IMG/VR virus record: IMGVR_UViG_3300045988_158927
Coordinates: 25,629 to 89,628 of that record
DNA from: a virus
Length of the DNA stretch: 64,000 nucleotides
Strand: one strand, 5' to 3'
How positions within the stretch are numbered: position 1 is the first letter of the stretch; each line of letters opens with the position of its first letter. A model generated the notes under the pieces. The model worked only from the letters and a program-made list of their open reading frames with translations, did not search any database and was not told where the DNA came from. The position numbers were made by a program, and so were the translations under genes. Below, one piece after another: positions 21,359 through 54,643 of this stretch.

Positions 21359-22073
21359 ACCACAATACATGGACCGATACTTCATCAGTCCTTTTGCAAT
21401 CCGTTTCAATTTCCAACCGCCTGAAGGCTTCCTGACCGATAAGGACGTTTTCAATTCCTACGGCCTCGAAGTCTTGGGGGGATACTGGAAGGCTGGTGCC
21501 GATCCTGATGTGGGTGCTTTCAAAAATCGCGTGTATGAGCGCATTGCCTATAACGAACGGCTGACCATGGACATCGGCGTCAATGCACCGATTGTGGCAG
21601 CCGTTATGACCGTCAGCAGTAATCGCACAGTGCCTCAATGGATGAAGCGAGGTATTGTTTTCTTCAACGATATCGACGATTTGCCGAAGGCATGGCAGAA
21701 GAACGTTGCCAGCACGACAGGCTGCGATGCTGGCGGAATCGCATGGAAGGGCGGCAAGCTTGGTGAGCTGCTGAATGATGCGAATGATTTGCTTCGTTCG
21801 GATGAATTCTACGGAATCGAAGATATCACCATGAGCCCCGAGGATGTCAAAGCGACCGGGATTAAGGCAAAATTCGGCTGGCTGAGTGACGCCAAAGAGG
21901 CCAAGAAGGCAATGTCTCTACGCAAGGGATGGTCAATGCGCCTCAAGGTTGCTGCCAGCGACGGCCATTTTGGCGGCGAGTTTCTGAAGGCAAAAGGCGT
22001 CCAGATCACGGACAATAACGAGGCGCTGATTCAAGCGTTTGCATCCCAATATGGAGAATTCGATGAGCAATGA
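21348..22073 (+). CDS. hypothetical protein upstream of recT
   Basis: Track ORF that overlaps the recT start. No nuclease motif recognised. Confidence 0.6.
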   Translation: MQNKPQYMDRYFISPFAIRFNFQPPEGFLTDKDVFNSYGLEVLGGYWKAGADPDVGAFKNRVYERIAYNERLTMDIGVNAPIVAAVMTVSSNRTVPQWMKRGIVFFNDIDDLPKAWQKNVASTTGCDAGGIAWKGGKLGELLNDANDLLRSDEFYGIEDITMSPEDVKATGIKAKFGWLSDAKEAKKAMSLRKGWSMRLKVAASDGHFGGEFLKAKGVQITDNNEALIQAFASQYGEFDEQ

Positions 22074-23088
22074 ACTTGCGGTCCAGCAGTCCGAATATGC
22101 TGTTCTGAACATGCCGCAAAGCACGGCAATCGCCACACTGAAGGCGTCGCTCTACCCCGGCGCCAGTGACGAAAGCGTTATCAACGTGCTGGAATACTGC
22201 CGCGCCGCGAAGCTGGACCCGATGCAGCGGCCTGTCCATATCGTGCCCATGTGGGACGCCAAGACAGGAAAAACCCGGGACACAATCATGCCCGGGGTGA
22301 ACTTCCACCTAACAGCAGCCGAGCGTAACGGCTGCGCGGGCATCGGTGAGCCGGAGTATGGTCCGGATGTTACGGAGGTTCTGGGCGAAGAGAGGATTAC
22401 CTATCCTGCATGGTGCAAGGTCAAAGTTTTGCGTCTGATCGATGGCGGCCGCATCGCTGAGTTTGTCGGATATGAGCGGTTCACTGAATGCGTCAGCACT
22501 AATAAAAAGGGCACGCCTAACGCCATGTGGAAGAAGCGCCCTTATGGGATGCTGGCCAAATGCGCTATGTCGCAAGCCCTTCGCAAGGGGTTTCCGTCTG
22601 TCGCTGGCGCGTACACGGCCGAGGAAATGGTGGGCAAGACGATTGGTGAAGACGACTATGACGGCTTCGTGGTCGATGAATCGGAAGCTGCCAAGCCTTC
22701 TCCTACGGCCGGAATCAAGACGAAATCCGAGGCTGCCGCCGAGAAAAAACGCGCCACGAAGGCTAAGGAAATCGTCGAGGCCGCACGTACCGGCGAGGCC
22801 GTGTCTGATGTCATCGAGGACGTGGAGTTTGTCGAAGCCGTTGCGGAGGCTTCAGCCGAAGCGGCGCCACCACCTGAACCCGCGAAGACCGAGAAGAAGC
22901 GGGAATACCTTCCCCAAGCAGTCCGGCCGTTCGGGGAGTCGCTCTACAACCAGCACGTCAAGCCGATTCTGGGCAAATGGACAGACCGCACGCTTCTCGA
23001 TCACTTCGGTCTGAACTATGAAAAGATCATGGATATCCCGCTGGAAGAAGCCCGCAACATCATGCGATTCCTGTGCGATGAACAATGA
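22063..23088 (+). CDS. recT: RecT-family single-strand annealing protein with C-terminal extension
   Basis: The N-terminal ~210 aa are RecT-like (VINVLEYCRAAKLDPMQRPVHIVPMWD ... MWKKRPYGMLAKCAMSQALRKGFP). They are followed by an Ala/Glu/Lys-rich linker and an extra ~60-aa C-terminal domain. Confidence 0.8.
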   Translation: MSNELAVQQSEYAVLNMPQSTAIATLKASLYPGASDESVINVLEYCRAAKLDPMQRPVHIVPMWDAKTGKTRDTIMPGVNFHLTAAERNGCAGIGEPEYGPDVTEVLGEERITYPAWCKVKVLRLIDGGRIAEFVGYERFTECVSTNKKGTPNAMWKKRPYGMLAKCAMSQALRKGFPSVAGAYTAEEMVGKTIGEDDYDGFVVDESEAAKPSPTAGIKTKSEAAAEKKRATKAKEIVEAARTGEAVSDVIEDVEFVEAVAEASAEAAPPPEPAKTEKKREYLPQAVRPFGESLYNQHVKPILGKWTDRTLLDHFGLNYEKIMDIPLEEARNIMRFLCDEQ

Positions 23089-23173: not shown

Positions 23174-23749
23174 ATGGACCTTGTTTCAATCGGCAAGCGG
23201 TTTTCTGAAGCGCGCAAGATGTGCGACCTCACTACAACCGCTGCCGCCAAACTGATCGGCGCAAAGAATTCTGTCCACCTGATGCGGATCGAAGCCGGGG
23301 AGATTGCGCCTTCTCTTGAGTACGTCATTCTTTGCTCACGCGCCTATAGCGTGACAACCGATTTCCTTCTCTGTCAATCGTCCGACTTCGAGTTTGACCA
23401 GAATTTCCGCGAAGACCGGGACGTTAGCGCCTGTCTGTTTGAGTACTGGGAGAGAACCAGAAAGCGCGACCTTTGCGCCATTCGGTCCGTGAGCGACCAA
23501 ATCCACAAGATCAAGGAGAGCACCGAGGAACTGGCATCGGTGGTCGATAGCATTGCGCTTGCATTCCAGCAATTCGCGTCCGATAACCCCGAGTTTGAAG
23601 ACATGCGCAACGGCGCGAAACTTCAAGCCCGTATCTATGGCGGCCGTGAAAAGGTCTCGAATGTGCGCCTAAAAATCCGACGGTTTGAGTACGCCGGCGA
23701 GAAGGCCACCGAGTATCTCAATGACGAATTGGGCCGCAATTCGCCTTGA
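23174..23749 (+). CDS. XRE-family helix-turn-helix regulator with ~120-aa C-terminal domain
   Basis: IGKRFSEARKMCDLTTTAAAKLIGAKNSVHLMRIEAGEIAPSLEYVILCSRAYSVTTDFLL is a typical Cro/C1-type HTH. Confidence 0.75.
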   Translation: MDLVSIGKRFSEARKMCDLTTTAAAKLIGAKNSVHLMRIEAGEIAPSLEYVILCSRAYSVTTDFLLCQSSDFEFDQNFREDRDVSACLFEYWERTRKRDLCAIRSVSDQIHKIKESTEELASVVDSIALAFQQFASDNPEFEDMRNGAKLQARIYGGREKVSNVRLKIRRFEYAGEKATEYLNDELGRNSP

Positions 23750-24482
23750 ATGGGAACTGTCCCCCAGATATGGAAGCCGGTGGATTGCAGAGAAATACGG
23801 TCTACGCCGCTCTGATGTCCACCGGCATTACGTTTCTGAGGGCTGGAAGAAGTTCAAGGAACGCTTTACGCAGGCACTACCTGAAGAGGTTATAGATTCG
23901 ATCATGGCCAAGCGCGACGACGAGGAACCGGACGAGATCAACACTTTTCCCGATGACGTTCTGTCAGTGGGAGGGAAATACGTGCCCGGCATGCACAAGG
24001 TCGCCTATAAGATCGGCCTGTTAGGTGGCACGCTCAAGGATTTGGCCGACGCTTTCGACGTGGCCGAAGGTACTGTGGTCCGGTGGTGCAAGGAACATCA
24101 GGAATTCGGGGAGGCTGTCAAGCGCGCCCGGATGCTGGCTGATGCAAACGTGGCGCATTCCCTGTTCAAACGGGCGATGGGCTACCAGATAACAGAAATG
24201 AAAGTGGTGAATACGCAGAACGGGCCGGAAGTTTTCCCCATTGAAAAGGACGTGCTACCGGACGTGGCCGCTATCAAATTCTGGCTGACAAACAGGCAGC
24301 CCCATCTTTGGAAAGATAAGGTTGAGGTAAGGGAGGAAGTAACCTTCAACGCCGCCAACCTTGAGAGGCAGCTAGAGGGCGTGTACGAGCGCGTTACCGA
24401 AGAGATCGAAGAGAAGCAGCGCGCCATTGAAGGACGGGCAGCGCGCCTTGGCTTTGACGTTGAAGATATCGAGGTGAAGTGA
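23721..24482 (+). CDS. terminase small subunit
   Basis: ATG 23721 (the track starts at TTG 23685). It has an HTH-like segment (LKDLADAFDVAEGTVVRWCKEHQEFGEAVKRAR) followed by SLFKRAMGY, as in phage small terminases, and sits directly upstream of TerL. Confidence 0.65.
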   Translation: MTNWAAIRLEWELSPRYGSRWIAEKYGLRRSDVHRHYVSEGWKKFKERFTQALPEEVIDSIMAKRDDEEPDEINTFPDDVLSVGGKYVPGMHKVAYKIGLLGGTLKDLADAFDVAEGTVVRWCKEHQEFGEAVKRARMLADANVAHSLFKRAMGYQITEMKVVNTQNGPEVFPIEKDVLPDVAAIKFWLTNRQPHLWKDKVEVREEVTFNAANLERQLEGVYERVTEEIEEKQRAIEGRAARLGFDVEDIEVK

Positions 24483-25990
24483 TGGCGTTCATCCCGCTGC
24501 CAGAAGACCCGCGATGGCTGCCGTTTGTTGAGCGGTACGCCGGAAGCTGCTTCCGTTTTGCGGTCGAAGTGCTGAAGCTGAAGCCGTCCCTTCAACAGAA
24601 GGAATTGATGGATGCCGTCAGTGCCCCGGGTTGTCGTGTCAGCGTGGCGTCGGGGCACGGAACTGGGAAGTCGTTCAGTCTTTCTATCATCATCCCTTGG
24701 CTTCTCTTCACGCACTACAAGGCGTGGGTTCTCGTTACCGCCAACGATATCGACCAGATCAAGGCATCCACACTGAAAGAGATTGCGTCACAAATCGGGC
24801 GCCTCAAAGAAGGCCCGTATGCGTGGCTGGCAGACAAGATCGAGCTGATGGCGTCCGGGGATTTGCGCGTCAGAGGGTATGAACAAAACTGGCTGATGGA
24901 GCTGAAGACCGCTAACGCCAAGAACGCCAACAAGATGGCCGGCCGTCACGCTAAATTCCTGACCATCATTGCCGATGAAGGTTCATCCATCCCGGATACC
25001 GTCATGATGACTCTGAACGGCGCGCTGACCGAAGCGGCTAACAGGTTCATCATCACTTCCCAGCCCACGAAGAATAGCGGCTTCTTCTACGATACCTTTA
25101 ACCGCCTGAGCGAGCGTAACGGGGGGCATTGGCACAACATCACAATGTCATCCATCGATTCCCCGCACGTATCGGATGAATCGTTGAAAACGCTATGGGC
25201 CATGTACGACGACGATGAGCGGCGCGTGCGCATTCTAGGGTTGTTCCCGCAGGATTCGGCCCGTTTCTTTGTTGGCAGAAAGGCCGTCGAGAACGCATAC
25301 AAGCGCGGCAGGATCATCAACGCGAACGAGCACTACGGATACTTCATTTGCTGCGACATTGCATCCGGTGAGGGCTTGCGAGACAAGAGCGCGGTGTCGG
25401 TGTGTAGGGTGTATGGATACGGGGATGAGCGCCGTGTAGAGGTGGTGGACATTCCATTGTTCACGAACAACATTCGGTCCAATCAGTTTGCCCATTACAT
25501 TATCGAGGCGGCAGCGCCCTACCCTAACGTTACGTTCGTGGTGGACAGTGGCGGCCTCGGTATCAACGTCTGCCAAGACCTAGAGGACGCGGGGAAAATG
25601 GTCCAGCGCGTGAACTGGGGCAATCCGTGTTTCCGGAACGTGAACAAGGATCGGTACCTGAATTTGCGCGCTCAAGCCACGCATCAACTTGCCCGAGCAA
25701 TCAAGGAAGGGCGATTTAGTGTGCTGACAAACGATCATCGGGCGGTGGGCCTTGATCAGGTATCGCGTATCCCGAAGACGTTCACCGATAAGGGGCGCTT
25801 GAGGGTTCCCCCAAAGCACGGCCCGGAATGGGAAGGGATGGGATCGCCTGACCTTGCCGATACGTGGGCATTCGCGTTCCTTGAGACTTCCACGTACACG
25901 GCCAGCGGCGAAAGTGTGAGCGACAAGACGATGATTTCAGCCGCCGAGGCAGCAACCGAAGAGGCCGCTAATCTGTTCTCTGACCTTTAG
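24482..25990 (+). CDS. terminase large subunit
   Basis: Walker A at VASGHGTGKSFS and Walker B at LTIIADEGSS. The C-terminal nuclease-type part has conserved acidic residues. ATG 24482 overlaps the TerS stop. Confidence 0.85.
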   Translation: MAFIPLPEDPRWLPFVERYAGSCFRFAVEVLKLKPSLQQKELMDAVSAPGCRVSVASGHGTGKSFSLSIIIPWLLFTHYKAWVLVTANDIDQIKASTLKEIASQIGRLKEGPYAWLADKIELMASGDLRVRGYEQNWLMELKTANAKNANKMAGRHAKFLTIIADEGSSIPDTVMMTLNGALTEAANRFIITSQPTKNSGFFYDTFNRLSERNGGHWHNITMSSIDSPHVSDESLKTLWAMYDDDERRVRILGLFPQDSARFFVGRKAVENAYKRGRIINANEHYGYFICCDIASGEGLRDKSAVSVCRVYGYGDERRVEVVDIPLFTNNIRSNQFAHYIIEAAAPYPNVTFVVDSGGLGINVCQDLEDAGKMVQRVNWGNPCFRNVNKDRYLNLRAQATHQLARAIKEGRFSVLTNDHRAVGLDQVSRIPKTFTDKGRLRVPPKHGPEWEGMGSPDLADTWAFAFLETSTYTASGESVSDKTMISAAEAATEEAANLFSDL

Positions 25991-26010: not shown

Positions 26011-26502
26011 ATGGGGCACCCCATGAAGAACGTTCTATTCAAGTTTGAAACGCTGTCGGAGAATGATCCGGCGGCCAAGAAAATCAAAAGCGCCTTTCTG
26101 AAGCTCGGCTGCAACGTCGTGGAAATGGCAGTGGGCAAGCCTAAGCGTAGTGCTGGCGTGAGTTACAAGGAATTCGACTTCACTTTTGCCGATTCCCAGC
26201 GCGTGACGGCCCGTATCAAGCCCACCGGAGACGTGTATCAAGTGCTGCTGAATGGCAGCGTTTTGCCGCTGAAGAATCAGGATGAGCACCAAAAGGCCAT
26301 CGAGGAAATTGCGTCGAAGCTGGACGGTGGGCGCGCTGCATTCCAGAAGAAGCTGGCACGTACCAAAGTAACTATCCCTGCTGGCATCCGTAACACGGTC
26401 AAGGAAACGGAGAAATCCCTGACCGAGAAGCGCGACGCTCTGAAAGAGGTTATTGCCGATCTCGATAAGAAGATCGAGGAAGCCACCGAGGCGCTGAAAT
26501 GA
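26011..26502 (+). CDS. hypothetical protein (coiled-coil C-terminus)
   Basis: Track ORF; an alternative start at ATG 26023 is possible. Confidence 0.55.
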   Translation: MGHPMKNVLFKFETLSENDPAAKKIKSAFLKLGCNVVEMAVGKPKRSAGVSYKEFDFTFADSQRVTARIKPTGDVYQVLLNGSVLPLKNQDEHQKAIEEIASKLDGGRAAFQKKLARTKVTIPAGIRNTVKETEKSLTEKRDALKEVIADLDKKIEEATEALK

Positions 26503-28829
26503 TTCACGGCCTAAAGATGCTGACCGAGGCGCAACGCAAGGCGCGCAACGGCAAGGTCCAGCGCACTACGTTCGGCCCGCTCTCGTTATGCGTGGAAATC
26601 CCGGCAGGCTGGAGGAAAGGGGCGTCGTTCCTGACGGCTCACTACGGCTACATTTCCGGCACGAAAGCCCCGGATGGCGCGGCTATCGATATGTTCCTGT
26701 CGCCGCAAGCAAGCGTGACGGCTGACGTGTTTGTCATCGACCATATGAAGGGCGGCAAATTCGACGAACCTAAAGTGTTCCTCGGGTTCACTTCCAAAGT
26801 GGATGCCGAGGAAACCTATCGGAATGTATACGCGCAACGTGCGCCAGCAACCAAAATGACGATGACGCAGTTTCAACAATGGATGAAGGAAGGGGGCGCA
26901 ATGCAACCGACGATCAAGGAAGAACCTAAGCTTCAAAAAGTCTACTGGGACAGTAACGGAGACCCGGATGTCCCGATGACGGAAATTCTCTACCAAATCC
27001 GCAAGACCGACCCTACTAGCCTTGCGCTTGAGCCGCTGACGCTTGACGACATCTACGGCGACGCTGACGAAATCGTGGAGCTTGATGCTCTGGTAGTGCC
27101 CATGATGCGCCTTGAGCGCGTGGCCGGCATCATGCAAAACCAGATGAAGCGGTACGGGTCCGAGGCGCTTAACTTCCAAGTGAGCAAGCCATTCAAGAAG
27201 AACGGCACGGCTCAAGTGGCGGTTGTCTATGAGCTTGCCGACGGCCAGACGATCGGCATCTACTTCCACAATCCGGACGTGACACCGGCCAAGATCGCGC
27301 CGCAAGATGAGCTGATTTCTTGGAAATGGATGCTCAACAAGAAGGACATTACGATCCTTGTGGCGCCGGAAAAAGGGCAGGATTTGGACCCGCGTGAAGT
27401 GATGCGCCGCGTGGCCAAGATCGCCATCAAAAATCGTCCGACGTTCGAGCGGAACAACGCTGCCCGCGTCGAGCGTGTGGCGCGTGTGGAGGCGCTTAAG
27501 GCTGAAATTGTCGTTCTTGAAAAGGAAGTGGACGACAAGACGCATGAGCTGGAAATTCTCCGCATGAAACTCGAAGAGAAGCGGAACATGCCGGCACCTG
27601 AACCTGAGCCCGCGCCTGAAGTGATGCCTGAACCTGAAGTTGCGAGCGGCTCGAATGATGCGCCTATTCAAGAAGTCAAGAAAGGTAGGATGAGTAAGTA
27701 TGATCCGGCGGTGGCAGCAGCCCTAGAGGAAAAGATTGCTAACCTTAATAGATTTTCTGATGTCAGAGACCTTCAGACTGCTATCCGTGACGCTGAACTT
27801 TCGCGCAATGATAAAAAGCGAATCAAGGAGATGTTGGAGCAGCGTGTAAGCGATATGAACCATGAGCGGTATCTGAAAAAACAGGAAATGCTTAAAGAAT
27901 TTGGCGAGCAATTGAAAGCCGCTGAATTTGAAGAGGAATTGTCTTTGGTTGAGGCGTTCATTCACAAAATCCCGGGTATTGATGAAGAGCATATGTCGCA
28001 TCTTTATACGAGTATTAGTGACAAGCGCAGAGAACTTCAAATAAAGAAGAAAGCGGAAGAACGCAAAGCCGCCGAACAAGCCAAGCAAGCCGAGCCCACG
28101 CCCGAAGATCCGAAGGAAGAAACCCGGGAAGAGCGCGTGACCCGTCTGCATGACGCGGTTATGGTCCTGATCAATTCGGCCACGTCCATCGAAGACATTC
28201 GGAAGCTGAAGAAATCCGCGACGTTCAATGAATTCCGCTATGTCACCGAGGACACTTCAAGGGCAGCCGATTTCAATCAGCAGCGCGAGAGCATCCGCAC
28301 GGCTCTCTACACCAAGAGCGCGGAACTGAACATGCCGCTCTACAACGAGATCATGCGCGAGATTCAGGCGGCTACTAGTGAGGCTGGTGTTTTGACGGCG
28401 CTTGAGAAGGTCGAAATGGTCCGGAACGACTTCCCGCCAGCCCAGCGTAACGAGATCACGCAGGCCGCCGAGGCACGCATTGAGGCACTGAATGCCGTTC
28501 CTGAGCCGCAAGCTACGCCGCTGCCTGAAGTGCAGTCGCCTATGCCAGAGGAACCCGCGCCAGAACCCGTCCATGAGCCGGCGCCAGAACCCGTCGCGGA
28601 ACAACCAGCCGAGGCAGTGAATGCTACGCCGCTGAATGCCCTGGTTAACCCGCAAGAAGCCGCCGACCGGGCCTATCTCGAAACGTTCGACCCGGCCACC
28701 GCTGACGATGCGCGCTTGGAAGAGATTGCTGCCCGCTACACGTCCGGCGAGATGTTGGAACTGCTGGAAAAGGCTTTGGCCAAATACGAGGAATACATGG
28801 TGGCTGCTGCCGAGGAATCGATGAAGTGA
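26499..28829 (+). CDS. 776-aa protein: N-terminal inorganic-pyrophosphatase-like domain (degenerate), central globular part, long Glu/Lys/Pro-rich low-complexity tail
   Basis: The N-terminal segments CVEIPAG, HYGYISGTKAPDGAAIDMFL and VFVIDHMKGGKFDEPKVFLGF are colinear with the family I PPase segments EIPxG, NYGYI...DGDPxDVLV and VGVLxMxDExGxDxKxxAV. PAPEPEPAPEVMPEPE and PEEPAPEPVHEPAPEPVAEQ tracts are present. Confidence 0.7.
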   Translation: MIHGLKMLTEAQRKARNGKVQRTTFGPLSLCVEIPAGWRKGASFLTAHYGYISGTKAPDGAAIDMFLSPQASVTADVFVIDHMKGGKFDEPKVFLGFTSKVDAEETYRNVYAQRAPATKMTMTQFQQWMKEGGAMQPTIKEEPKLQKVYWDSNGDPDVPMTEILYQIRKTDPTSLALEPLTLDDIYGDADEIVELDALVVPMMRLERVAGIMQNQMKRYGSEALNFQVSKPFKKNGTAQVAVVYELADGQTIGIYFHNPDVTPAKIAPQDELISWKWMLNKKDITILVAPEKGQDLDPREVMRRVAKIAIKNRPTFERNNAARVERVARVEALKAEIVVLEKEVDDKTHELEILRMKLEEKRNMPAPEPEPAPEVMPEPEVASGSNDAPIQEVKKGRMSKYDPAVAAALEEKIANLNRFSDVRDLQTAIRDAELSRNDKKRIKEMLEQRVSDMNHERYLKKQEMLKEFGEQLKAAEFEEELSLVEAFIHKIPGIDEEHMSHLYTSISDKRRELQIKKKAEERKAAEQAKQAEPTPEDPKEETREERVTRLHDAVMVLINSATSIEDIRKLKKSATFNEFRYVTEDTSRAADFNQQRESIRTALYTKSAELNMPLYNEIMREIQAATSEAGVLTALEKVEMVRNDFPPAQRNEITQAAEARIEALNAVPEPQATPLPEVQSPMPEEPAPEPVHEPAPEPVAEQPAEAVNATPLNALVNPQEAADRAYLETFDPATADDARLEEIAARYTSGEMLELLEKALAKYEEYMVAAAEESMK

Positions 28830-28851
28830 TAGGGTGATGGCCTAAAATCAG

Positions 28852-28885
28852 AACGGTCGGAAGAGATTCCGGCCGTTTTTTTTTG
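28852..28885 (+). terminator. rho-independent terminator (T9)
   Basis: AACGGTCGG (28852-28860) pairs with CCGGCCGTT (28869-28877) with one G-U pair, followed by T9. Confidence 0.7.
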
Positions 28886-28905
28886 CGCAAAAAAAGGAAC
28901 ATCCA

Positions 28906-31900
28906 ATGACAGTTATTGAGAAGCTGAAGCTGATCAAAAACCTGAAAGCTGCACAAGCCCTTCCCCGCGACACGATCCCTCAACGCCTCGCACGAATCAA
29001 GGCCATCAAGGCCGCGCTTGATGCGCTCAAAGGGGCAAAGGCTGAGGAACGTACCGCCGAGAAGGAATCCGTAGAAGCAGCGTTCAAGTTTGATGCAGAA
29101 CGCAAGACCGCCGAACGCAAGAAGGCCAATGATGCGGCCTATGCGCTGCTGCAAAGCCTCGATGAGGGCAAGACACTCACCGAAGAAGAAAAGGCCGTGC
29201 TGGCAGCGTATAGCGGTTGCGGCGGCGGTCTGATCAACCCGCTTACCGGAAAGACGGGCAGCGCGACGGAATACTACACGCCGAAGCCTATCGTCTCGGG
29301 CATGTGGGACATGCTGGGCGAATCGTTCGGGTTCAAAGGCGGTAAAGTGCTGGACCCGAGTAGCGGTACCGGCATTTTTGGGGCGACGGCGCCAAAGGGT
29401 GTCGTTATGCAAAGCGTGGAAATCAGCGAGGTTTCCGGCAAGATCAACAAGGCGCTTAACTCGAAAACCGGCAATAACGTTGCCATCGAGCCGTTCGAGG
29501 GCTTCGCAGCGCGCACGCCTGACGGCACGTTCGATGCTCTGGTAACTAACGTTCCGTTCGGTGATTCCGGTATCCGGACTGCCAAAGGAATGGACCAGAA
29601 ATATCAGGATCAAAGCCTGCAAGGCTACTTCCTGCTGCGCGGCCTCGATAAGCTGAAGCCGGGCGGCCTGATGGCCGTGATTCTGCCGGGTAGTGTCGTT
29701 GCCAATCGTGGGGCACGTGAAACCAAAGTGCGGACCATGATCAGCCTGAAGGCCGAATTTTGCGGCGCCATCCGCTTGCCTAACAGTGTCTTTGAGACAA
29801 CCGGCGCTGACGTGATTACGGACGTTGCCGTATTCAAGAAACACGGGACTGACGCGGCTGAAAAGATTGATGCTCTTTTCCGTGCGGGAAAATCCGATGA
29901 ACTGCGAGAAATGGGCGTTCTCTATGAGGAATTCATCGACGGCAATTGGTTCAAGGGCGAAGGACGCAAGTACCTGCACGGCGAGGAAGTGACCGTTAAC
30001 GGGCGCTGGGGCGAGACGCAGAAAGTCGTTTCAACCAAAAGCGTTACGGAAATCGGCCCCCTGCTGCGAGAGCTTCGCTTCAAATCGCGCATCAACTGGG
30101 ATGCTCTGGGGGCGGCTGATGTAAGCCTTGCCTATGACGTGGGCGACGAGATTACGGCACCAGATGGCACACTGATGCGCTGGGACGGTGAAACGTTCGT
30201 GGAGGTCCAGCGCGCCGAAGCGAAGGTCAACCCGTTTGCCAAGGTCATCGAGGCAATGGACCTGACCGCGCTTCAGTTCTACTACGCAGACTTCAGTGAC
30301 GATGAGGTGGCCGGCGCGCTGCAATACGTTGCAGACAATAACGTATCCGTCAAACCATGGGTCAATACGCTGAACCTTGGCAAGCGCATTGATGTTCTCG
30401 TTTGCGCGGCCGTCGAAGCGTTCGATGAGAAAGCCCCGACCGATAACCTTGGTGAAGAGCATCCGCGCCTGACCGAGGACGTGCAAGCTTCCATCAAGGC
30501 AGCACGCAACGTCACGCCGAAAGAGAGCGCGAAAGGCGTCTACAACCGATTCAAGGCGTTTACCGATAGTGGCGTTCTGTCGCCCGTTTGGTTCGGGCAG
30601 GTGGCCGAGCTGAAGACTATCGAGAGCAATGCAGCCAAATTCGAGGTCGCAAAAGGCAGTCAGAAATGGGTCGGCATCAATGAGATGCGCAAAGCCGGCA
30701 TTGACGTTGACGGTGAAGAATTCGTCCACAACGGCGACAAGGTTGCGCTGATGGATGAGGTCTGCACTGGCAAGGCCGCTGAAGTTATCGAGGCACTGAA
30801 GAACGCTGACGTACCGCCTGAGCGCAAAGCCCGTCAGATCGCGCTTGCGATGGAACGTATCGAGAAAATCGACGTTTCCAAGATGATCTTTACGCTTACG
30901 ACGAAGTACGTGTCAGCGGATGCTAAGGCGGAATTCCTGACCCTGTACGTGAGCAAATCGAACTATTCAGGCTTCCAAGCGCATGATGACATTGTTGTGC
31001 TGCCGGCGTCTGAGGTAAAGTATGTAGCGTTCGGGAACGTTGACAAACTGTTCGTGCGCGCACTTGTCGGCTACGTGAACGATGGTCGCGTGTCGTTCGG
31101 GAACCTGAAGATTGACGGCGTTTCTGATGATGAGCAAAAGCAGGCGAAGCGCGACCTTCTCGACGACTATCGTAAGTACCTGAACAAGCTTGATACGCAA
31201 TTCAACCTGTGGGTTCACTCGAATCGTGCGCTGAAAACCGCGCTGGATATCCGCCTGAATTCGGCTGAGAACGCCTTCTTCAAAACGCAAGCCAGCGACG
31301 GCCCGCTGACGATTCCCGGCCTGTCCGGTGATATCCAACTGCACGGCTATCAGCGCGCTTTCGTGCGCAAGATCGCAGCGCGATTCAATGGCATCAACTC
31401 GTTCGATGTGGGCCTCGGCAAGAGTTTCACGGCACTGGCCAGCGTGCAGTATGCGCAAGCCATCGGCGCGAAGAAAAAGACCGTTTTCGTCGTGCCAAAG
31501 TCCGTCATCACAAACTGGGTGAAGGAAGCCAACCGCCTGTTTTCCGCTGACGTTGCCAATGACATTCTGGTAGTCGGTGCCGTCGAGAAGAAAGGAAAGC
31601 TTGACGTTGATTCCAAGCGATTCGACGCAGATTTGCAGCGCATCGCGGATAACGTTCACTCGAAGATTTTCATGACGGCCGAAGCATTCCAGCGTATCCG
31701 CATCCGGGAAGAGGATGTTAAGGAATATCTGGACGCCATGCGCCTGAACGACCGCGATGCTTACGGGGACAAAATTTCTGACGCTGATAGCAATCGTGTA
31801 GAAAGCCGTCTGTATGCCATCGAGAAGATTCTCACGGAAGACGGCAAGAGCGAAGGCGCGCCGTTTTGGCATACGCTGGGCATTGATTCTGTCGTGTTCG

Positions 31901-34900
31901 ATGAGATGCACGTGAACAAGAATGCCGTGATTGCCATCGGTGTGCGCGGCGCCAAATTCCTGTCGCTGCCGCCTGCATCCAAGAAATCCGTGGACGTGAT
32001 GTGCAAGACTTGGCTGATCCGTCGTGACCATGGTTCCGGTGTGCTGGGCCTGACCGCTACGCCTATCACTAACTCGCCGCTGGAAATCTACGGGATGATG
32101 TCCATCGTGGAAGGCATGGACGCAGTGAATGATGCGTGCGGCGTCGCTGGACCGGGCGATTTCATCAAGGAATCTGTCATCGTCGAAAACCGTGCAGAAC
32201 TCGGCGTGGACGGCGAAGAGCGGATGATGGATGTTTTCGTCGGCTTGAAAAACACGCAGATTCTGGCGCGTCTCGTTCGTGGCGTGTGCGATATCAAGAC
32301 GGCCGCCGACGCCGGGAACATTGTCCAGCCTGACAGTGAAGAGGTGGTGCAAGGCGTGCCGCTGGATAACGACACGGACCGGCAATTGCGTCGGATGATC
32401 CTTGCCTACCAGATCATGCAGGGGGCGGTTGACGCAGGCCCGGAAATCCCCGAGCGCGTGGCAGAGGTTTATGGGTCCAAAGTCAAGACGCTGATGTCCC
32501 CGCTCAACCTTCTGTCGAATATGTCGAAACTGATGGTTGATGAGGACGCGGCCAAGAAACGCACGGTCTATATCGGTGGTTCCGAAGAGCTTACGGAGAA
32601 ATTCAACGGCCTGAAGATCAAGGAGAAACGCGCCTATGGCCCGCGCCTTGATGCAAGCGAGACGGTCAAAGTGACGGTCAATCCTGAAGACGAGGAAGAC
32701 GTTGAATTCATCGTCCAGATTGGGGCAGTCTTCGATGGTGGAAAGACGATCATCGATACAACGTCATGGGAGACTCAAGACAAATTCGAGGCACTTGCCG
32801 CGAAGCTTGACGTACCCTTGGACGTGAAGCCGTCGGAGAAATTCAAGGCCCTTATCGAGAACATGAAGGCCGAGGCTGCTAACGTGCGCGGCATCAAGAA
32901 TGGCGAGCGCATCGAGCATGCCAAGCAGATCGTCTTCTGCGACATGCTGGCAACCCATAACAAACTGAAGCGGTTCATTTGCTCACGTATGGGCATCCCC
33001 GCCTCGGAGGTCATCATCGTTACGGGTCAGCGTAACGGTTCGCCTGAAGAAATTCAGGACGTGCAAGACGGGTTCAATGACGGACGCTATCGCATCATCA
33101 TTGCCAACGAAAAGGCCGAGGTCGGCATCAACCTGCAAAAAGGCACGCAAGCTATCCATCACCTGACGATTGGATGGACTCCGGACAGTTTGCAGCAGCG
33201 TAACGGACGTGGCGTTCGGCAAGGTAACGAGACCGCGAAAGTGAACGTCTATTACTACGATGCCGAAGGTACTTTCGACCAGATGAAGCGGTCAATGGTC
33301 AACAAGAAGGCCGACTGGATCGAGAAGGTAATGACGGGCGAAGGCCGCACGGTGGCCGTGAATGCCGGCCTGACACGCGAGCAAATGGACGCGCTGATCG
33401 ATGGTATGGGCGACGCCGAGAGCATTGCCAAAGCGCAAGCCCAAGCGGAAGAGAAAGCCAAGAAGGAAGCGCGTAACCGTGCCGTCACTCAACAGATGAT
33501 CATGATTGAGGTTGCGCAAAAGAGCGAGGAAGAGCTGAAAAAGGCGGCCGATATGGCAAGCTGGGCCACGTCGATGATCAACAAGCTTATTACGCCGATC
33601 AATCAGCAACTGGAAGTCTCGCGCAAGCAATTGGCACTGTCTCGCAGTGATAAGACCAAGGAACGGCTTACGCAGACCATTGCCGAGCTTGAGAAGCGGC
33701 AGGGTGAAATCAGGACGCGCTATCGGAACTATTCTGATCCGTCCGTGCGTGAGGAATGGCAAAACGACATTGAGGCGCTGCAAGATAGCGTCAAGAGCGC
33801 CAATGAGCAGGTGGAGAACCTGTCTGGCGATGGCGGCCTGAATGAACGTGAAATCCAGCACGTCAAGGACGGAGAGTTCTTCAGGGTTGGCGATGAACTT
33901 GCTTTCCCGGGTCAGTTTGTCATGACCAAAAACGACGGTATCGGGGTTGTCGTGAAGAACATCAGGAAATCCCTTTGCCTCGCAACTCTTCGCAAGGATG
34001 ATAGCCGGCGTTCCGCTGCCTTGGATACCTCCCCGGTCGGCATGGAGCGACTGATCGATGAGGATAAGGTTCCTCACGACATTCTGAAAGAGTTTGCCAA
34101 GATCGATACGTATCAGGCGATGCAGGAAGAGGAAAGAACGTTCGAGACCGTTAAGGCGATCACGCAATACACGCAGGTTGTCGCCAAATGGAAGGGCGAC
34201 CTTGCTAACGTTCTGTGGAAAGAGGGCGTACCCGTTCTGATGATGGGTTCCTACGGTTATCCGCTGTTCGGGATTAGCCGTGATGCGCATCGGGATTCCG
34301 TCATCAATTACGATCCGTATAGCGTCGCCACGCTCAAAGATGATGGCACATGGACCGAGGTTGACATTGAAACGACGGCTGCTGCTGCCGCGCAATATCT
34401 GATCTCGATTGATGCTGTTATGAGCGATTTGATGGTGGTACGGAACGAGAAATTCCGGAAGCTTCTGTCCCAGAACATCGAGAACCATTACCTCAAAGAC
34501 CCGGCCATCGTTGAGCAGGCAATCGAACTGGCCAAGCAGGAATACTCGTCATACCGTTACGGTAGCTACGACATTCCAAAAGTGGCGCGGATGCTTTCAA
34601 TCCTTGGCCTTCGACGTGCGGCAAAACTGCACTACAACCTCTATTCGGCAGAGGATTTCCCGGGCGTGGAATCGATGCAGGGTCAGATGGAAGTGTTCGT
34701 CAAACAGGCCCGCGAAGAGGAGGAGCGCGTTAATCAGGAATGGGAGGAGAAGAAACGGCGAGAGCGCGAAGAGGCGGAAGCCAAGGCAGCACAAGATGCG
34801 GCGAACATGGAGAAATGGGTGTCCGAGGGCTTCCCGGCTGATCAGGAATTCGGCATCACTGGATTCCGCACGTTCGGCTTTAAGGATCGGATCAAGCAGG

Positions 34901-35046
34901 CTGAACAAGAGGCAGGCGGTAAAGCCCGCTGGCACGGTGACAGCAAGCAATGGATCATTCACGGGAAGGCGCTGGACAAACTGTTCAAGGATGAATCGTT
35001 TGCCGATGCCGTCAAGGAAAAAGAGCTGATCATCAAGCCCGTCTGA
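28906..35046 (+). CDS. 2046-aa polyvalent protein: N6-adenine-type DNA methyltransferase + SNF2-family helicase + long C-terminal region (DarB-like architecture)
   Basis: MTase motifs: YYTPKPIV, VLDPSSGTGIFG (motif I, nt 29347-29379) and VTNVPFG (motif IV, nt 29548-29559). SNF2 motifs: LHGYQ, DVGLGKS (31405-31425), DEMH (31900-31911), LGLTATPITNSPLEIY, GINLQ and QQRNGRGVRQGN (from nt 33193). The last ~600 aa are unassigned and include coiled coils. Confidence 0.9.
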   Translation: MTVIEKLKLIKNLKAAQALPRDTIPQRLARIKAIKAALDALKGAKAEERTAEKESVEAAFKFDAERKTAERKKANDAAYALLQSLDEGKTLTEEEKAVLAAYSGCGGGLINPLTGKTGSATEYYTPKPIVSGMWDMLGESFGFKGGKVLDPSSGTGIFGATAPKGVVMQSVEISEVSGKINKALNSKTGNNVAIEPFEGFAARTPDGTFDALVTNVPFGDSGIRTAKGMDQKYQDQSLQGYFLLRGLDKLKPGGLMAVILPGSVVANRGARETKVRTMISLKAEFCGAIRLPNSVFETTGADVITDVAVFKKHGTDAAEKIDALFRAGKSDELREMGVLYEEFIDGNWFKGEGRKYLHGEEVTVNGRWGETQKVVSTKSVTEIGPLLRELRFKSRINWDALGAADVSLAYDVGDEITAPDGTLMRWDGETFVEVQRAEAKVNPFAKVIEAMDLTALQFYYADFSDDEVAGALQYVADNNVSVKPWVNTLNLGKRIDVLVCAAVEAFDEKAPTDNLGEEHPRLTEDVQASIKAARNVTPKESAKGVYNRFKAFTDSGVLSPVWFGQVAELKTIESNAAKFEVAKGSQKWVGINEMRKAGIDVDGEEFVHNGDKVALMDEVCTGKAAEVIEALKNADVPPERKARQIALAMERIEKIDVSKMIFTLTTKYVSADAKAEFLTLYVSKSNYSGFQAHDDIVVLPASEVKYVAFGNVDKLFVRALVGYVNDGRVSFGNLKIDGVSDDEQKQAKRDLLDDYRKYLNKLDTQFNLWVHSNRALKTALDIRLNSAENAFFKTQASDGPLTIPGLSGDIQLHGYQRAFVRKIAARFNGINSFDVGLGKSFTALASVQYAQAIGAKKKTVFVVPKSVITNWVKEANRLFSADVANDILVVGAVEKKGKLDVDSKRFDADLQRIADNVHSKIFMTAEAFQRIRIREEDVKEYLDAMRLNDRDAYGDKISDADSNRVESRLYAIEKILTEDGKSEGAPFWHTLGIDSVVFDEMHVNKNAVIAIGVRGAKFLSLPPASKKSVDVMCKTWLIRRDHGSGVLGLTATPITNSPLEIYGMMSIVEGMDAVNDACGVAGPGDFIKESVIVENRAELGVDGEERMMDVFVGLKNTQILARLVRGVCDIKTAADAGNIVQPDSEEVVQGVPLDNDTDRQLRRMILAYQIMQGAVDAGPEIPERVAEVYGSKVKTLMSPLNLLSNMSKLMVDEDAAKKRTVYIGGSEELTEKFNGLKIKEKRAYGPRLDASETVKVTVNPEDEEDVEFIVQIGAVFDGGKTIIDTTSWETQDKFEALAAKLDVPLDVKPSEKFKALIENMKAEAANVRGIKNGERIEHAKQIVFCDMLATHNKLKRFICSRMGIPASEVIIVTGQRNGSPEEIQDVQDGFNDGRYRIIIANEKAEVGINLQKGTQAIHHLTIGWTPDSLQQRNGRGVRQGNETAKVNVYYYDAEGTFDQMKRSMVNKKADWIEKVMTGEGRTVAVNAGLTREQMDALIDGMGDAESIAKAQAQAEEKAKKEARNRAVTQQMIMIEVAQKSEEELKKAADMASWATSMINKLITPINQQLEVSRKQLALSRSDKTKERLTQTIAELEKRQGEIRTRYRNYSDPSVREEWQNDIEALQDSVKSANEQVENLSGDGGLNEREIQHVKDGEFFRVGDELAFPGQFVMTKNDGIGVVVKNIRKSLCLATLRKDDSRRSAALDTSPVGMERLIDEDKVPHDILKEFAKIDTYQAMQEEERTFETVKAITQYTQVVAKWKGDLANVLWKEGVPVLMMGSYGYPLFGISRDAHRDSVINYDPYSVATLKDDGTWTEVDIETTAAAAAQYLISIDAVMSDLMVVRNEKFRKLLSQNIENHYLKDPAIVEQAIELAKQEYSSYRYGSYDIPKVARMLSILGLRRAAKLHYNLYSAEDFPGVESMQGQMEVFVKQAREEEERVNQEWEEKKRREREEAEAKAAQDAANMEKWVSEGFPADQEFGITGFRTFGFKDRIKQAEQEAGGKARWHGDSKQWIIHGKALDKLFKDESFADAVKEKELIIKPV

Positions 35047-35057
35047 TTGACGTAACG

Positions 35058-35090
35058 AGGGGGCGCCGATATGATGAAGCGTCCCCTTTG
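35058..35090 (+). terminator. weak terminator candidate
   Basis: A 9-bp stem (35058-35066 with 35079-35087, one G-U pair) and a 12-nt loop, followed only by TTT. Confidence 0.35.
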
Positions 35091-35104: not shown

Positions 35105-35473
35105 ATGGATATCGAAGAGATCAAAGAGAACTTTGCGTACACCGAAGACGTTGCGAAGGGCTGGCGTGATTACTACCAGATGGACGACGCAGACACCGAG
35201 CGCGTGGCCAAAGTGATTGCAGGCCGCATCAGCGACAAGAAGACGGATTACCGTAACTACGGCCCTTGGTGGTGGCCCGTCAAGCGTGCATTGATCGCGC
35301 AAGGGCTGGCGGCGGGATACGTGGATGAGGAAGTAGCCGATGCTCTGTCGTTCGGGAATGGACTGGACGACATGCTTTGCGGCGACGCCTACAGAACGTC
35401 GTTCCTCGGGTCCAGCATCGCGGAGACGAAACAGCACGGCCAATACGTCATCCATGATCCGGACATGGAATAG
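35105..35473 (+). CDS. hypothetical protein
   Basis: Track ORF. No motif recognised. Confidence 0.55.
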   Translation: MDIEEIKENFAYTEDVAKGWRDYYQMDDADTERVAKVIAGRISDKKTDYRNYGPWWWPVKRALIAQGLAAGYVDEEVADALSFGNGLDDMLCGDAYRTSFLGSSIAETKQHGQYVIHDPDME

Positions 35474-35497: not shown

Positions 35498-35525
35498 AAG
35501 CGCCTGTAGTTTGGGCGCTTTTTCA
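35498..35525 (+). terminator. rho-independent terminator
   Basis: AAGCGCC (35498-35504) pairs with GGCGCTT (35514-35520), followed by TTTTC. Confidence 0.6.
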
Positions 35526-36288: not shown

Positions 36289-36318
36289 GGGGAGGCTTGT
36301 GCCTCCCCTTTTTTTTAC
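36289..36318 (+). terminator. rho-independent terminator (8-bp GC stem, T10)
   Basis: GGGGAGGC (36289-36296), loop TTGT, GCCTCCCC (36301-36308), followed by a T-run. Confidence 0.8.
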
Positions 36319-36325
36319 CCGTACC

Positions 36326-36357
36326 GATTGTTTCGATAATCGAGACAATCGATTGTT
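36326..36357 (+). promoter_or_regulatory. 25-bp near-perfect palindrome plus a third half-site
   Basis: GATTGTTTCGAT-A-ATCGAGACAATC (36326-36350, 11 of 12 positions symmetric) is followed directly by GATTGTT (36351-36357). It lies between the terminator and ATG 36384. Confidence 0.45.
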
Positions 36358-36383
36358 ACGCAAAACGGAACAATGAGGAAGAA

Positions 36384-37196
36384 ATGGCAATTACTGTCTC
36401 TCACTCGGCCGTCAAAGAAAAGCGCGACGTGCCGAAACGCGAACGCCTCGGCAGCCAATGGGACGGCCTGAATACAAACCTGCTGGCGACGTTCTTTGAA
36501 GTCGAGAAGGTGGGCAGCGAGTACAAGCGCAAAGAGGGCCTGTATGTAGTTGCGCCGCTCACGGATGCGAGCTGCGAACTCACCCAAAACTGGACATCGC
36601 CCTTTGAGCAATCCGGCGTAGACCAAAGCGCCCCCTACCTGACCGCCATGCTTCAGACTGGCGGGCTTTCGCAAGTGGTGGACGCGGTGGGATCGGCCCT
36701 TGGATTCGAGGGAGACGGCGGGATGGCGAACGAGGCGCTCAAGCAGGCGCAAGGCCGGTCAAGCGTGACGAAGCTTAACAGCACGCAAATTTTCAGCGGG
36801 ATGCCACCGGTCAAATTCAGCGTAACGGCCCTTTTCCGGGCGTGGTCGAATGCCCGGGATGAGGTCGAGCGCCCCATGGAAAAACTCGTGGAATGGTCCC
36901 TGCCGAAGGCCATCGTCAACGAAGGAACCCTGATCGAACGGGGGGTTCAAATCCAGAAAGGCAGCGCCGATTGGTGGTCGGCCATCATGCCCAGCAAGGC
37001 CCCTTGTCTGGTAGGAATGACGTACAAGGGGCGCACTTGGATGCCCATGGTCATCGAATCAATCAGCATCCCGATTGCGTCCAACGTGACGGGTTCCGGG
37101 GAGTTTGTAGAGCTGGCAATCCCGATGACGCTGGCCACGCTGACGGCTATTGACGCGAAAGACTGGACGGCTACGAGCGTCAATCATGGCCGATAG
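36384..37196 (+). CDS. hypothetical late protein, terminator-insulated monocistron (tail-tube-like guess)
   Basis: Track ORF 36297-37196 trimmed to ATG 36384 with RBS GAGGAAG. It is flanked by strong terminators on both sides, like the capsid and sheath genes. Its beta-rich pattern is weakly reminiscent of tube proteins, so the function is uncertain. Confidence 0.55.
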   Translation: MAITVSHSAVKEKRDVPKRERLGSQWDGLNTNLLATFFEVEKVGSEYKRKEGLYVVAPLTDASCELTQNWTSPFEQSGVDQSAPYLTAMLQTGGLSQVVDAVGSALGFEGDGGMANEALKQAQGRSSVTKLNSTQIFSGMPPVKFSVTALFRAWSNARDEVERPMEKLVEWSLPKAIVNEGTLIERGVQIQKGSADWWSAIMPSKAPCLVGMTYKGRTWMPMVIESISIPIASNVTGSGEFVELAIPMTLATLTAIDAKDWTATSVNHGR

Positions 37197-37219: not shown

Positions 37220-37244
37220 AGCCCGCCGAGTGCGGGCTTTTTTG
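37220..37244 (+). terminator. rho-independent terminator
   Basis: AGCCCGC (37220-37226) pairs with GCGGGCT (37232-37238), followed by TTTTTG. Confidence 0.75.
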
Positions 37245-46568: not shown

Positions 46569-46782
46569 CACTATCCACGCGCTCACGCTCTATGCCGGAT
46601 GTTCTCTTCTGGAAGCCAAGGAAGTAACCGCCAGCGAGGCCGGGGATTTCTTCAACGGAACATCATTCGAGCAATGGAAGAAGGGGCGTGATGCTGATTT
46701 GAAAATCCAAACCGGCATCGCGTCACGATTGAATGAGGTTATCCGAGGCATCGGATTACTTCAGAAGGTCATGGGCCGATAG
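46552..46782 (+). CDS. small ORF (TTG start) or frameshift extension of 45945-46568
   Basis: The frame is open from 46453 and has no ATG. TTG 46552 is preceded by GGGAA. The ORF ends at TAG 46780-46782, just before a terminator. Confidence 0.3.
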   Translation: MKSLRDTIHALTLYAGCSLLEAKEVTASEAGDFFNGTSFEQWKKGRDADLKIQTGIASRLNEVIRGIGLLQKVMGR

Positions 46783-46789
46783 AATGATC

Positions 46790-46815
46790 AGGGGGCGACG
46801 GCCCCCTTTCTTTTC
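46790..46815 (+). terminator. rho-independent terminator
   Basis: AGGGGGC (46790-46796), loop GACG, GCCCCCT (46801-46807), followed by TTCTTTTC. Confidence 0.7.
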
Positions 46816-46828
46816 TGAAGGATGGATC

Positions 46829-47623: not shown

Positions 47624-48378
47624 TGTTCGAGCCGGTCAAACACGCCTTTGGCCGGTTCATGGGAGACTTCTATGCTTCCCTTGTTCCGACCACGAAACCC
47701 ATGCAGGAATTTTGCGCCCGAGGGCTTGAGAAGAGCATCGGCATCGCCCCCGGGAAGATGGTTGATGCCGCCGAGAGCATGGTTAACTCTTGGATAAAGA
47801 ACGTTCAGGAATCCGAGAACGGGTCTACTCGCGGGCCGTCCAAAAACCATCAATTCCCGGCAATCATCGTAGCGTTCGCAAAGGATTCGCCAGCCTATGA
47901 GCGCGAGTACGGGCGCCCGCTATCTGACGCCGAGTTTGTGCAAATCCCCGATGATCCGCTCAAGCGCATCTTCAAGCTTCGCACGATTGGCATGGATATG
48001 CGCGTGCAGATTGTCATCATTTCTCACGATGAGCCGTCAGCGCGTAGCATCGCAGCGCAATTCCAAGCGTTCGTAGATCAGGGAGACAGGCGGCGCTTTA
48101 AGGCGGTCTATGAGTTTGCTCAAACGGAAACGCTCTGGCCGTGCCAGATTGAAAACACGTCCGTTCCGTTCCTGAACATCCCGAGCGAGGCCGATAACCT
48201 TACGCTATTGGCGAGCGACCTTACATTGCATTGCACGGTACCGCTCTTTGAAGCCTCGCCGGTTGGGAAGGGTGTTACCCCCTACGGATTCCCGACCGTG
48301 CGCGAGGTCCGTTATGATGGCTTCCACGAGCGCGAGCACGTCCGTCATGCAATCGTTGGGGAGAAACTGGTTCCGTGA
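47623..48378 (+). CDS. hypothetical virion-module protein
   Basis: Track ORF with a TGATG overlap. Confidence 0.6.
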   Translation: MFEPVKHAFGRFMGDFYASLVPTTKPMQEFCARGLEKSIGIAPGKMVDAAESMVNSWIKNVQESENGSTRGPSKNHQFPAIIVAFAKDSPAYEREYGRPLSDAEFVQIPDDPLKRIFKLRTIGMDMRVQIVIISHDEPSARSIAAQFQAFVDQGDRRRFKAVYEFAQTETLWPCQIENTSVPFLNIPSEADNLTLLASDLTLHCTVPLFEASPVGKGVTPYGFPTVREVRYDGFHEREHVRHAIVGEKLVP

Positions 48379-54621: not shown

Positions 54622-54643
54622 AATCGGTCCAATCGATCGATAT

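Follow-up and report, generated by a model that had tools for sequence, protein, structure and literature searches.

A four-gene Dar-like cassette with a probable DarB orthologue, a methyltransferase-helicase protein of 2046 residues, in a distant P1-like myophage

The Dar system of phage P1 is the closest described counterpart of the gene examined here, a 2046-codon open reading frame (ORF) in 64,000 nt of viral DNA from the IMG/VR record IMGVR_UViG_3300045988_158927; this whole 64-kb stretch is called the window, and coordinates are window positions unless another genome is named. P1 DarB is a protein of ~250 kDa; each head contains ~40 copies, which are loaded after all the other Dar proteins (PMC9024508), and the first 30 residues of DarB suffice for capsid targeting (PMC9024508). 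Two further reports state that P1 heads take up Hdf and DarA before the other Dar proteins, none of which is packaged without them (PMC12810830), and that Dar acts in cis, shielding only the DNA packaged with it (PMC12707154). The second point of reference is the methylase-helicase dyad of polyvalent proteins described by Iyer et al. in 2017 (PMC5512222), which unites an LPD36 region containing a GxGU motif, an EcoKI/TaqI-like adenine methyltransferase (MTase) that has a TP motif on its N-terminal side, and a SWI2/SNF2 ATPase. The gene in the window very probably encodes an orthologue-grade relative of P1 DarB, the large catalytic component of a four-gene Dar cassette in a distant P1-like myophage. 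Homology and synteny further suggest that the DarB-like protein is packaged in the virion and counteracts restriction.

The darB-like gene lies at 28906-35046 (+), and its ATG is the earliest possible start 3' of an in-frame stop, with AGGAA, a Shine-Dalgarno-like sequence, 6 nt 5' of it. The ORF call and the translation agree with an earlier note on this DNA, which had proposed a single protein of 2046 residues here; along the protein follow an LPD36-like region, an N6-adenine MTase, an SNF2 helicase and a C-terminal extension. In BLASTP the MTase part is 39% identical to P1 DarB over 371 residues (E 1e-64) and the helicase part 28% identical over 880 residues (E 2e-69). Among the PHROGs, phrog_11801 ("DNA methyltransferase", profile length 2269) matches at E=0 over residues 8-1588 and phrog_10089 ("DarB-like antirestriction") at 2.5e-78. 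A tblastn search of 50,697 phage records gave 139 that match, the best being Xanthomonas phage Rb1 (39%), followed by the darB genes of P1, SJ46, RCS47 and D6; darB of P7 was also matched, as were many "DarB-like antirestriction" genes in Ralstonia, Burkholderia and Erwinia phages. In a large protein collection 654 relatives were matched (E<1e-10), which typically have 2,100-2,200 residues and 37-40% identity and go under source names such as "N-6 DNA methylase", "SNF2-related protein" and "HsdM"; one 97%-identical cluster comes from metagenomes. An ORF of 2046 codons with homologues at E=0 is far beyond chance. Judged from its sequence, the protein belongs to the DarB family both by similarity and by architecture (LPD36-type region, gamma-class N6-adenine MTase, SWI2/SNF2 ATPase). 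Several relatives of ~2,500 residues (P0030, P0056, P0075, P0079, P0093-P0095, P0116, P0118) carry intein/homing-endonuclease domains (PF14890, PF14528), which account for their length.

Both enzymatic modules can be followed motif by motif. The MTase and helicase motifs quoted in the earlier note were all located in the translation, namely YYTPKPIV (residues 123-130), VLDPSSGTGIFG (148-159), VTNVPFG (213-219), DVGLGKS (834-840), DEMH (999-1002), LTATPITNSPLEIY (1049-1062) and QQRNGRGVRQGN (1430-1441). Pfam matches were counted only above the curated cut-offs, and a Pfam search of the kind that the note had proposed gave N6_Mtase (residues 117-321, E 4.8e-13), SNF2-rel_dom (826-896), ResIII (810-941) and Helicase_C (1337-1440), while the Eco57I model that it had named remained below its cut-off on the protein. 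The predicted gamma-class N6-adenine DNA MTase domain (29254-29868 (+), residues 117-321) has LDPSSGTGIF as motif I and NVPF as motif IV, instead of the canonical NPP[YF], and this variant is invariant in 107 of 107 sequences, P1 DarB included. The solved structures nearest to the MTase core are type I HsdM subunits (2okc at 3.7e-6; 7eew). It is preceded by the LPD36-type region (29083-29271 (+)) with its GxG[GAS] motif (LTEEEKAVLAAYSGCGGGL), which runs into the invariant YYTP motif and was recognised by reading the motif in the family alignment, as no Pfam model matches there. The SNF2-type superfamily 2 helicase/translocase module covers 31306-33405 (+), residues 801-1500, with Walker A GLGKS, DEMH, TATP and QRNGRGVRQG. 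Between the two modules lies an inter-domain region (29869-31305 (+), residues 322-800), which shows weak conservation in the family (E ~1e-12 in BLAST to relatives), no Pfam match and, over residues 434-755, no BLAST alignment to P1 DarB; it is possibly a DNA-recognition or linker module.

Conservation of the motifs was examined in an alignment of 107 relatives with P1 DarB and the Rb1 protein, in which YTP, N-V-P-F-G of motif IV, GLGK, DExH and QRxGRxxRxG, i.e. the motifs of both catalytic centres, are invariant in 107/107. The ratio of non-synonymous to synonymous substitution rates (dN/dS), computed against the 97%-identical relative, is 0.07 for the whole darB-like gene and 0.03 in each enzymatic module. 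Both catalytic centres are strictly conserved and under strong purifying selection, and their invariance argues that both activities are used.

The neighbouring genes provide the second line of evidence. Two proteins at 26011-28829, which the earlier note had described as large or odd, are recognised by PHROGs, Pfam and pairwise comparison with P1 as the Dar partners Hdf-like and DarA-like. The hdf-like gene (26011-26502 (+)) encodes 163 residues with a DarA_N-type domain (Pfam DarA_N E 1.5e-11) and matches phrog_1620 "Hdf-like antirestriction" (E 1.5e-39); its product aligns with P1 Hdf at E 1e-7 and is 53% identical to the Rb1 homologue. Its stop is overlapped by 4 nt by the start of the darA-like gene (26499-28829 (+)), the product of which has 776 residues with InPase at residues 10-130 (Pfam E 6.6e-22), DarA_N at residues 194-313 (Pfam E 1e-37) and a long helical Pro/Glu-rich tail, and aligns with P1 DarA at E 4e-17. 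The InPase part (26526-26888) has a match at E 2e-9 in a phage portal of solved structure, 9b41 gp19, whose C-terminal domain is of this type. Immediately 3' of the darB-like gene, as in P1, is the ulx-like gene (35105-35473 (+), 122 residues), which matches phrog_1629 "Ulx-like anti-restriction" at E 7.3e-13, P1 Ulx at E 7e-7 over only 30 residues, and, with 31% identity and E 1.7e-9, a 141-residue gene product at the same position in Rb1. Predicted counterparts of four of the six P1 Dar components (hdf-, darA-, darB- and ulx-like) are present in one cassette. The "Dar-like candidate" of the earlier note has thereby received support from the homology to P1 DarB, the DarB-like PHROG, the Hdf-, DarA- and Ulx-like neighbours and the P1-related portal, tail tube and sheath, and the background on which it leaned (P1 DarB of ~250 kDa, packaged, countering type I restriction) agrees with the literature (PMC9024508, PMC12810830).

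The InPase domain (type I pyrophosphatase-like) is carried by different Dar proteins in different genomes: in the window and in Rb1 it is found at the N-terminus of the DarA-like protein, in Vreelandella (L006 6389-9988) inside a DarA_N+ddrB-ParB+InPase protein of 1199 residues, and in a metagenomic contig (L008 10001-17296) fused to the N-terminus of the DarB-like protein, which there has 2431 residues.

The cassette stands directly after the terminase genes and directly before a tail tube gene. Upstream are terS (small subunit, 23685-24482 (+), phrog_309 E 6.7e-36) and terL (large subunit, 24479-25990 (+), phrog_2 E 5e-33); downstream are a homologue of the gp21-type tail tube of P1 (35511-36266 (+)), found by tblastn to P1 gp21 and P1-like tail tube proteins, and a PmgG-like morphogenesis gene (36297-37196 (+), phrog_1114 E 8.9e-48), so that the placement between terminase and virion genes described in the earlier note is confirmed. 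The portal protein matches only P1-type phages (Rb1 at 52%; P1 (Prt), P7, D6 and SJ46 at about 27%), the major capsid protein is 57% and the tail tube 56% identical to those of Rb1, myovirus sheath, baseplate and tape-measure-like genes are present in the window, and a P1 Pro-related region was found at 46850-47257. By its predicted proteins the host phage is a distant P1-like myophage, closest to Xanthomonas phage Rb1.

The arrangement is conserved beyond the window. The 97% relative, a metagenomic scaffold of 88,992 bp, has an identical gene order. The cassette order is also kept where relatives are 37-40% identical, in prophages of Vreelandella aquamarina and of an Ectopseudomonas oleovorans chromosome and in one on a metagenomic contig; there a DarA_N protein of ~160 residues, a large DarA_N polyvalent protein, an MTase-helicase of ~2,150 residues and a protein of ~137 residues follow each other. 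All of these cassettes (L006-L008) are situated inside lysis or tail modules. From this comparison the split dar arrangement of P1 looks like the exception. A small gene with a PAAR motif adjoins the hdf-like gene in Vreelandella (L006, 5978-6268) and Ectopseudomonas (L007, 5233-5520); none was seen in the window cassette.

In comparison with P1, the domain order of the large protein is the same (LPD36-like region, N6-adenine MTase with NVPF, SNF2 helicase), and ulx directly follows darB, and darA follows hdf, in both. P1 has the order lydA-lydB-hdf-darA-ddrA-ddrB, with darB-ulx separate and ~10.7 kb away, whereas the window has a single hdf-darA-darB-ulx cassette by the terminase genes. The P1 system includes DdrA and DdrB, neither of which was found in the window; P1 DarA is without InPase, while the DarA-like protein carries it as an extra N-terminal domain; and P1 DarB has 2255 residues in comparison with 2046. 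Residues 434-755 and all of the protein past about residue 1535 show no significant similarity to P1 DarB, and the window possesses in addition a terminator-like hairpin between the darA-like and darB-like genes and a lineage-specific segment of 289 residues. These differences (consolidated cassette, InPase fusion, divergent C-terminal third, insert and hairpin) vary a theme that is already documented.

The closest annotated phage relative is DHCFNIPB_000058 of Rb1 (PQ569993.1), which is 39% identical over 1646 residues. The other three cassette genes have counterparts in Rb1 as well: one is hdf-like, one encodes an InPase+DarA_N "internal head protein", and an Ulx-like gene follows the giant gene. 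It differs from the window in several extra genes between the hdf-like and DarA-like genes, in an M12B metallopeptidase gene (probably DdrB-like) directly 5' of the giant gene, in the length of the large protein (2238 residues, about 140 more of them N-terminal) and in the middle part of its C-terminal region, which is unrelated to the orphan segment of the window. The Rb1 M12B peptidase had no tblastn match in the whole window at E<0.01. In Rb1 (L001 11461-18177) the giant gene is annotated as "chromatin remodeling complex ATPase" and its partners as "internal head protein" and "metallo-peptidase family M12B"; these labels, and "HsdM" or "N-6 DNA methylase" in bacteria, look like an under-annotated Dar cassette.

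The window protein has exactly the architecture of the methylase-helicase dyad (phrog_11801, phrog_10089), and the dyad proteins share its phage late-gene context, with DarA_N and InPase in neighbouring polyvalent proteins. There is no categorical difference; the window lineage adds the orphan segment and is without a peptidase-bearing partner in the window. DarA-N and InPase were already listed as phage-type polyvalent-protein domains (PMC5512222). With HsdM of type I restriction-modification (R-M) systems only the catalytic core of the MTase is alike, and with DrmD, BrxHII and ZorD the C-lobe of the helicase. Type I R-M, type III/type ISP enzymes and DrmD combine an ATP motor and adenine methylation on one DNA-tracking machine, as here; in contrast to them the window gene is linked to morphogenesis, is homologous to a counter-defence protein and is without an HsdS-type subunit, nuclease domain or defence partners. 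The scan of the neighbours with PHROGs, Pfam and PADLOC showed neither an HsdS nor an HsdR gene.

The C-terminal part, ~600 residues of which the earlier note had left unassigned, divides by profile comparison into three parts. The similarity to P1 DarB in BLASTP stops near residue 1535. A post-helicase region (33406-33963 (+), residues 1501-1686) is largely helical and common to the wider family (hhalign against the profile of relatives, probability 98.8%, E 1e-16). It is followed by the lineage-specific orphan segment (33964-34830 (+), residues 1687-1975). In hhalign this segment is not similar to what the relatives have at the corresponding place (E 0.48); it replaces a region that all other members of the family conserve. 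When 1.84 billion representatives were searched exhaustively with phmmer, there was a single match, an 83%-identical fragment from the same clade. The last part is a small alpha/beta domain by predicted fold (34831-35043 (+), residues ~1976-2046), with which the Rb1/Vreelandella-type relatives also end (hhalign 96.5%, E 1e-9) and which is conserved only in that subfamily. A motif "ARW...WWII", seemingly common to the C-termini of P1 DarB and the darB-like protein, was rejected, as hhalign of the P1 DarB C-terminal region with the window protein and with the profile of relatives gave E 0.04-0.6.

Modelling, which the note had proposed for the C-terminal part, succeeded for the last ~71 residues, where AlphaFold2 with an alignment gave a predicted local distance difference test score (pLDDT) of 93.4 and a helix followed by beta-alpha-beta-beta-alpha-alpha-beta; the single-sequence model of residues 1640-2046 (pLDDT 49) was unusable except for the last ~110 residues, and the orphan segment scored below 50. 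The small domain has no Pfam match, and the only matches in Foldseek against PDB and BFVD were generic ferredoxin-like ones, with E about 0.1 or worse. Its dN/dS of 0.02 is the lowest in the gene. The orphan segment has a dN/dS of 0.21 and a dS of 0.07, in comparison with a dS of 0.24-0.32 in most of the remaining gene, and differs from the 97% relative by 13 synonymous and 10 non-synonymous differences. Its low dS could reflect a recent recombinational exchange between both phages or small-number noise. A rather unlikely proposal is that the orphan segment was acquired recently as an effector or specificity module and directs the injected motor-methyltransferase against another defence, of BREX-, DISARM- or Dnd-type. 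If it were true, the segment, the lack of DdrA and DdrB and the InPase-fused DarA-like protein would together make up a pared-down Dar variant of four genes, directed at a new range of targets.

If the DarB-like protein works as P1 would suggest, the Hdf-like and DarA-like proteins would be built into the procapsid first, and the 2046-residue protein would then be loaded through its N-terminal targeting region with the Ulx-like protein assisting. Tens of copies would be stored in the head and would exit with the DNA upon infection, each acting only in cis, on the DNA with which it arrived. The SNF2 motor, using ATP, would track along the entering duplex, which the fused gamma-class N6-adenine MTase would modify, and the moving enzyme may also occlude or displace translocating type I (possibly BREX-like) complexes before the host can cut. 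Such coupled tracking, methylation and occlusion, which follows the methylase-helicase dyad proposal of Iyer et al. (PMC5512222), is in our analysis the most likely biochemical step, although it carries somewhat less than half of the weight within the Dar explanation. Within the same frame, the main alternative is that the motor does the essential work, by evicting or blocking restriction complexes, and that methylation is secondary. A candidate for the capsid-targeting region is provided by the N-terminal ~59 residues (28906-29082 (+)), which begin amphipathic-looking (MTVIEKLKLIKNLKAAQAL); family relatives have a loosely conserved "RL.L.KRA" stretch near the N-terminus in the family alignment. 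The authors of the P1 study found no shared consensus in the N-termini of P1 Dar proteins (PMC9024508).

Several points weigh against the assignment to the Dar system and the role that it implies. The protection by P1 is specific to families of type I enzymes (EcoB/EcoK versus EcoA) and not to sites, and by our reasoning this family specificity would fit protein-level interference at least as well as methylation. The mechanism of Dar, that of P1 included, was still called unclear in papers of 2024-2025 (PMC11109961, PMC12707154), and the published plasmid-based assays of DarB are confounded by Chi-site-driven restriction alleviation (PMC11109961). In the protein itself, the N-terminus has no significant similarity to the targeting sequence of P1 DarB, and the C-terminal ~545 residues have none to the C-terminal part of P1 DarB in hhalign. 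DdrA and DdrB are absent from the window in tblastn with P1 DdrA and both parts of DdrB (E<0.01), although a very divergent small DdrA may be present, or copies may lie outside the 64-kb window. Since DdrB aids the incorporation of DarB in P1, the loading pathway would not be identical to that of P1. Late-promoter boxes of the P1 type are not above chance (AAGTKAYT-N5-TANNNT, an Lpa-type box based on three promoters annotated in P1, has 1 match in comparison with 1.24 expected), and the box is either unused here or diverged beyond recognition. Nucleotide searches of phage and plasmid collections gave no match, and a scan of GTDB genomes, which might have pointed to a bacterial host and its restriction systems, found no close relative.

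Some of these points would suit a non-packaged intracellular enzyme, whether a maintenance methyltransferase plus motor acting on progeny DNA or a helicase of recombination or replication, for which the position among virion genes would be incidental. Both domains are generic DNA enzymes, genes for RecT and other proteins of DNA metabolism are found a few kb upstream, and neither a detectable similarity to the P1 capsid-targeting sequence nor the loading aid DdrB was found in the window. We nevertheless consider it unlikely, because the gene is flanked by homologues of P1 head-loading proteins, Hdf and DarA upstream and Ulx downstream, in a four-gene order kept across about 60% sequence divergence and always in morphogenesis or lysis modules, and because the P1 homologue is a proven virion protein (PMC9024508). 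The enzymatic domains could also be relics in a protein that mainly serves as a "filler" inside the head or as a scaffold and is linked to the determination of capsid size; P1 Hdf and DarA influence head size, and it has been suggested that the large P1 head accommodates Dar cargo (PMC12810830). The catalytic motifs of both domains, invariant across 107 sequences, and the enzymatic-module dN/dS, the gene's lowest save that of the small C-terminal domain, argue against this explanation, which we consider very improbable, and the head-size effects in P1 map to Hdf and DarA and not to DarB (PMC12810830).

MTase-helicase fusions do occur in defence systems (PMC5512222), and the protein has weak PADLOC matches to DrmD (53 bits), BrxHII, ZorD and type I MTase models as well as an NCBIfam match to DISARM DrmD at 48 bits, as might be expected of a prophage-borne host-defence enzyme (single-chain R-M-like, or of DISARM, BREX or Zorya type) protecting the lysogen from other phages. 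The NCBIfam match has to be seen against a cut-off of 610 and covers only residues 1308-1595, while the PADLOC matches, none of them above 53 bits, are partial and involve only the generic helicase C-lobe or the MTase core. With matches that are weak and partial only, a defence-system identity was rejected, and we regard it as very improbable also because a nuclease domain and any further component of DISARM, BREX or Zorya are missing, the five neighbours are without a PADLOC match, and strand and position are those of a late morphogenesis block, between the terminase and tail tube genes.

The intergenic regions of the cassette contain terminator-like hairpins. One, at 28850-28879 (+), has a 13-bp stem and a T9 tail and is situated in the 76 nt that separate the darA-like gene from the darB-like gene; its predicted stability is -19.6 kcal/mol (z -4.1), and 0 of 200 shuffles were as stable. 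The gap (28830-28905), in which the T9 tail of the hairpin is followed by an A7 run, is 99% conserved in relation to the 97% relative (L004), while its flanks are ~92% conserved; the distant relatives L006-L008 have no such gap or hairpin and their genes abut. We speculate that this hairpin may attenuate read-through and thereby keep the amount of giant protein lower. A second (35498-35520 (+), -12.6 kcal/mol, z -2.8) closes the cassette after the ulx-like gene. In agreement with the terminator-insulated late genes of the earlier note, stable hairpins with T-runs come after the next genes, at 35498-35520, 36289-36308 and 37220-37238. Terminator-like sites in the region number 20 in comparison with a shuffled expectation of 17.9, i.e. 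they are not above it overall, and only four intergenic + strand hairpins (28850-28879, 35498-35520, 36289-36308, 37220-37238) are individually notable. A sigma-70-like promoter match, TTGACG-17-TATGAT (10/12), was found at 35047-35075, one base past the darB-like stop and upstream of the ulx-like gene; the promoter count in the region is not above chance overall, and the P1 ulx region likewise holds annotated promoters.

A few other observations concern the gene and the organisation of the window. Three long antisense ORFs lie within the darB-like gene at 28645-29979, 30967-32385 and 33292-34488 (-), with 444, 472 and 398 residues; we assume them to be shadow ORFs, the coding frame being GC-rich and strongly conserved. 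The genes for the portal (54642-56192) and the major capsid protein (50846-52471) are situated 25-30 kb downstream of the terminase genes, and head and tail genes are interleaved, with the sheath (53008-54621) between capsid and portal and tail/baseplate-like genes at 46733-50277. This order is unusual in comparison with most tailed phages; in P1 the portal gene adjoins darB. An early/middle region 5' of the terminase genes contains a thymidylate synthase gene (8880-9662) and a gene for a RecT-family annealing protein (22039-23088), and many ORFs in 1-22 kb have no PHROG match.

To our knowledge, the mechanism by which P1 DarB protects DNA has been unknown since 1987, and the protein is hard to study with its 250 kDa, its need for five partners and plasmid assays confounded by Chi sites. 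The window adds little that is new in kind; it documents a compact four-gene version of Dar (hdf, darA, darB, ulx) which is widespread in proteobacterial prophages. The comparison separates invariant parts, i.e. YTP, LDPxxGxGxF and NVPFG of the MTase, all motifs of the SNF2 motor and, in the Rb1/Vreelandella-type subfamily, the C-terminal domain, from exchangeable ones, i.e. the placement of InPase, the orphan insert of ~290 residues and the presence of DdrA and DdrB. For annotation, the labels "chromatin remodeling complex ATPase", "HsdM" and "SNF2-related protein" on prophage genes for proteins of ~2,100 residues should read DarB-like. The result is a minimal parts list for testing whether methylation, translocation or both are needed.

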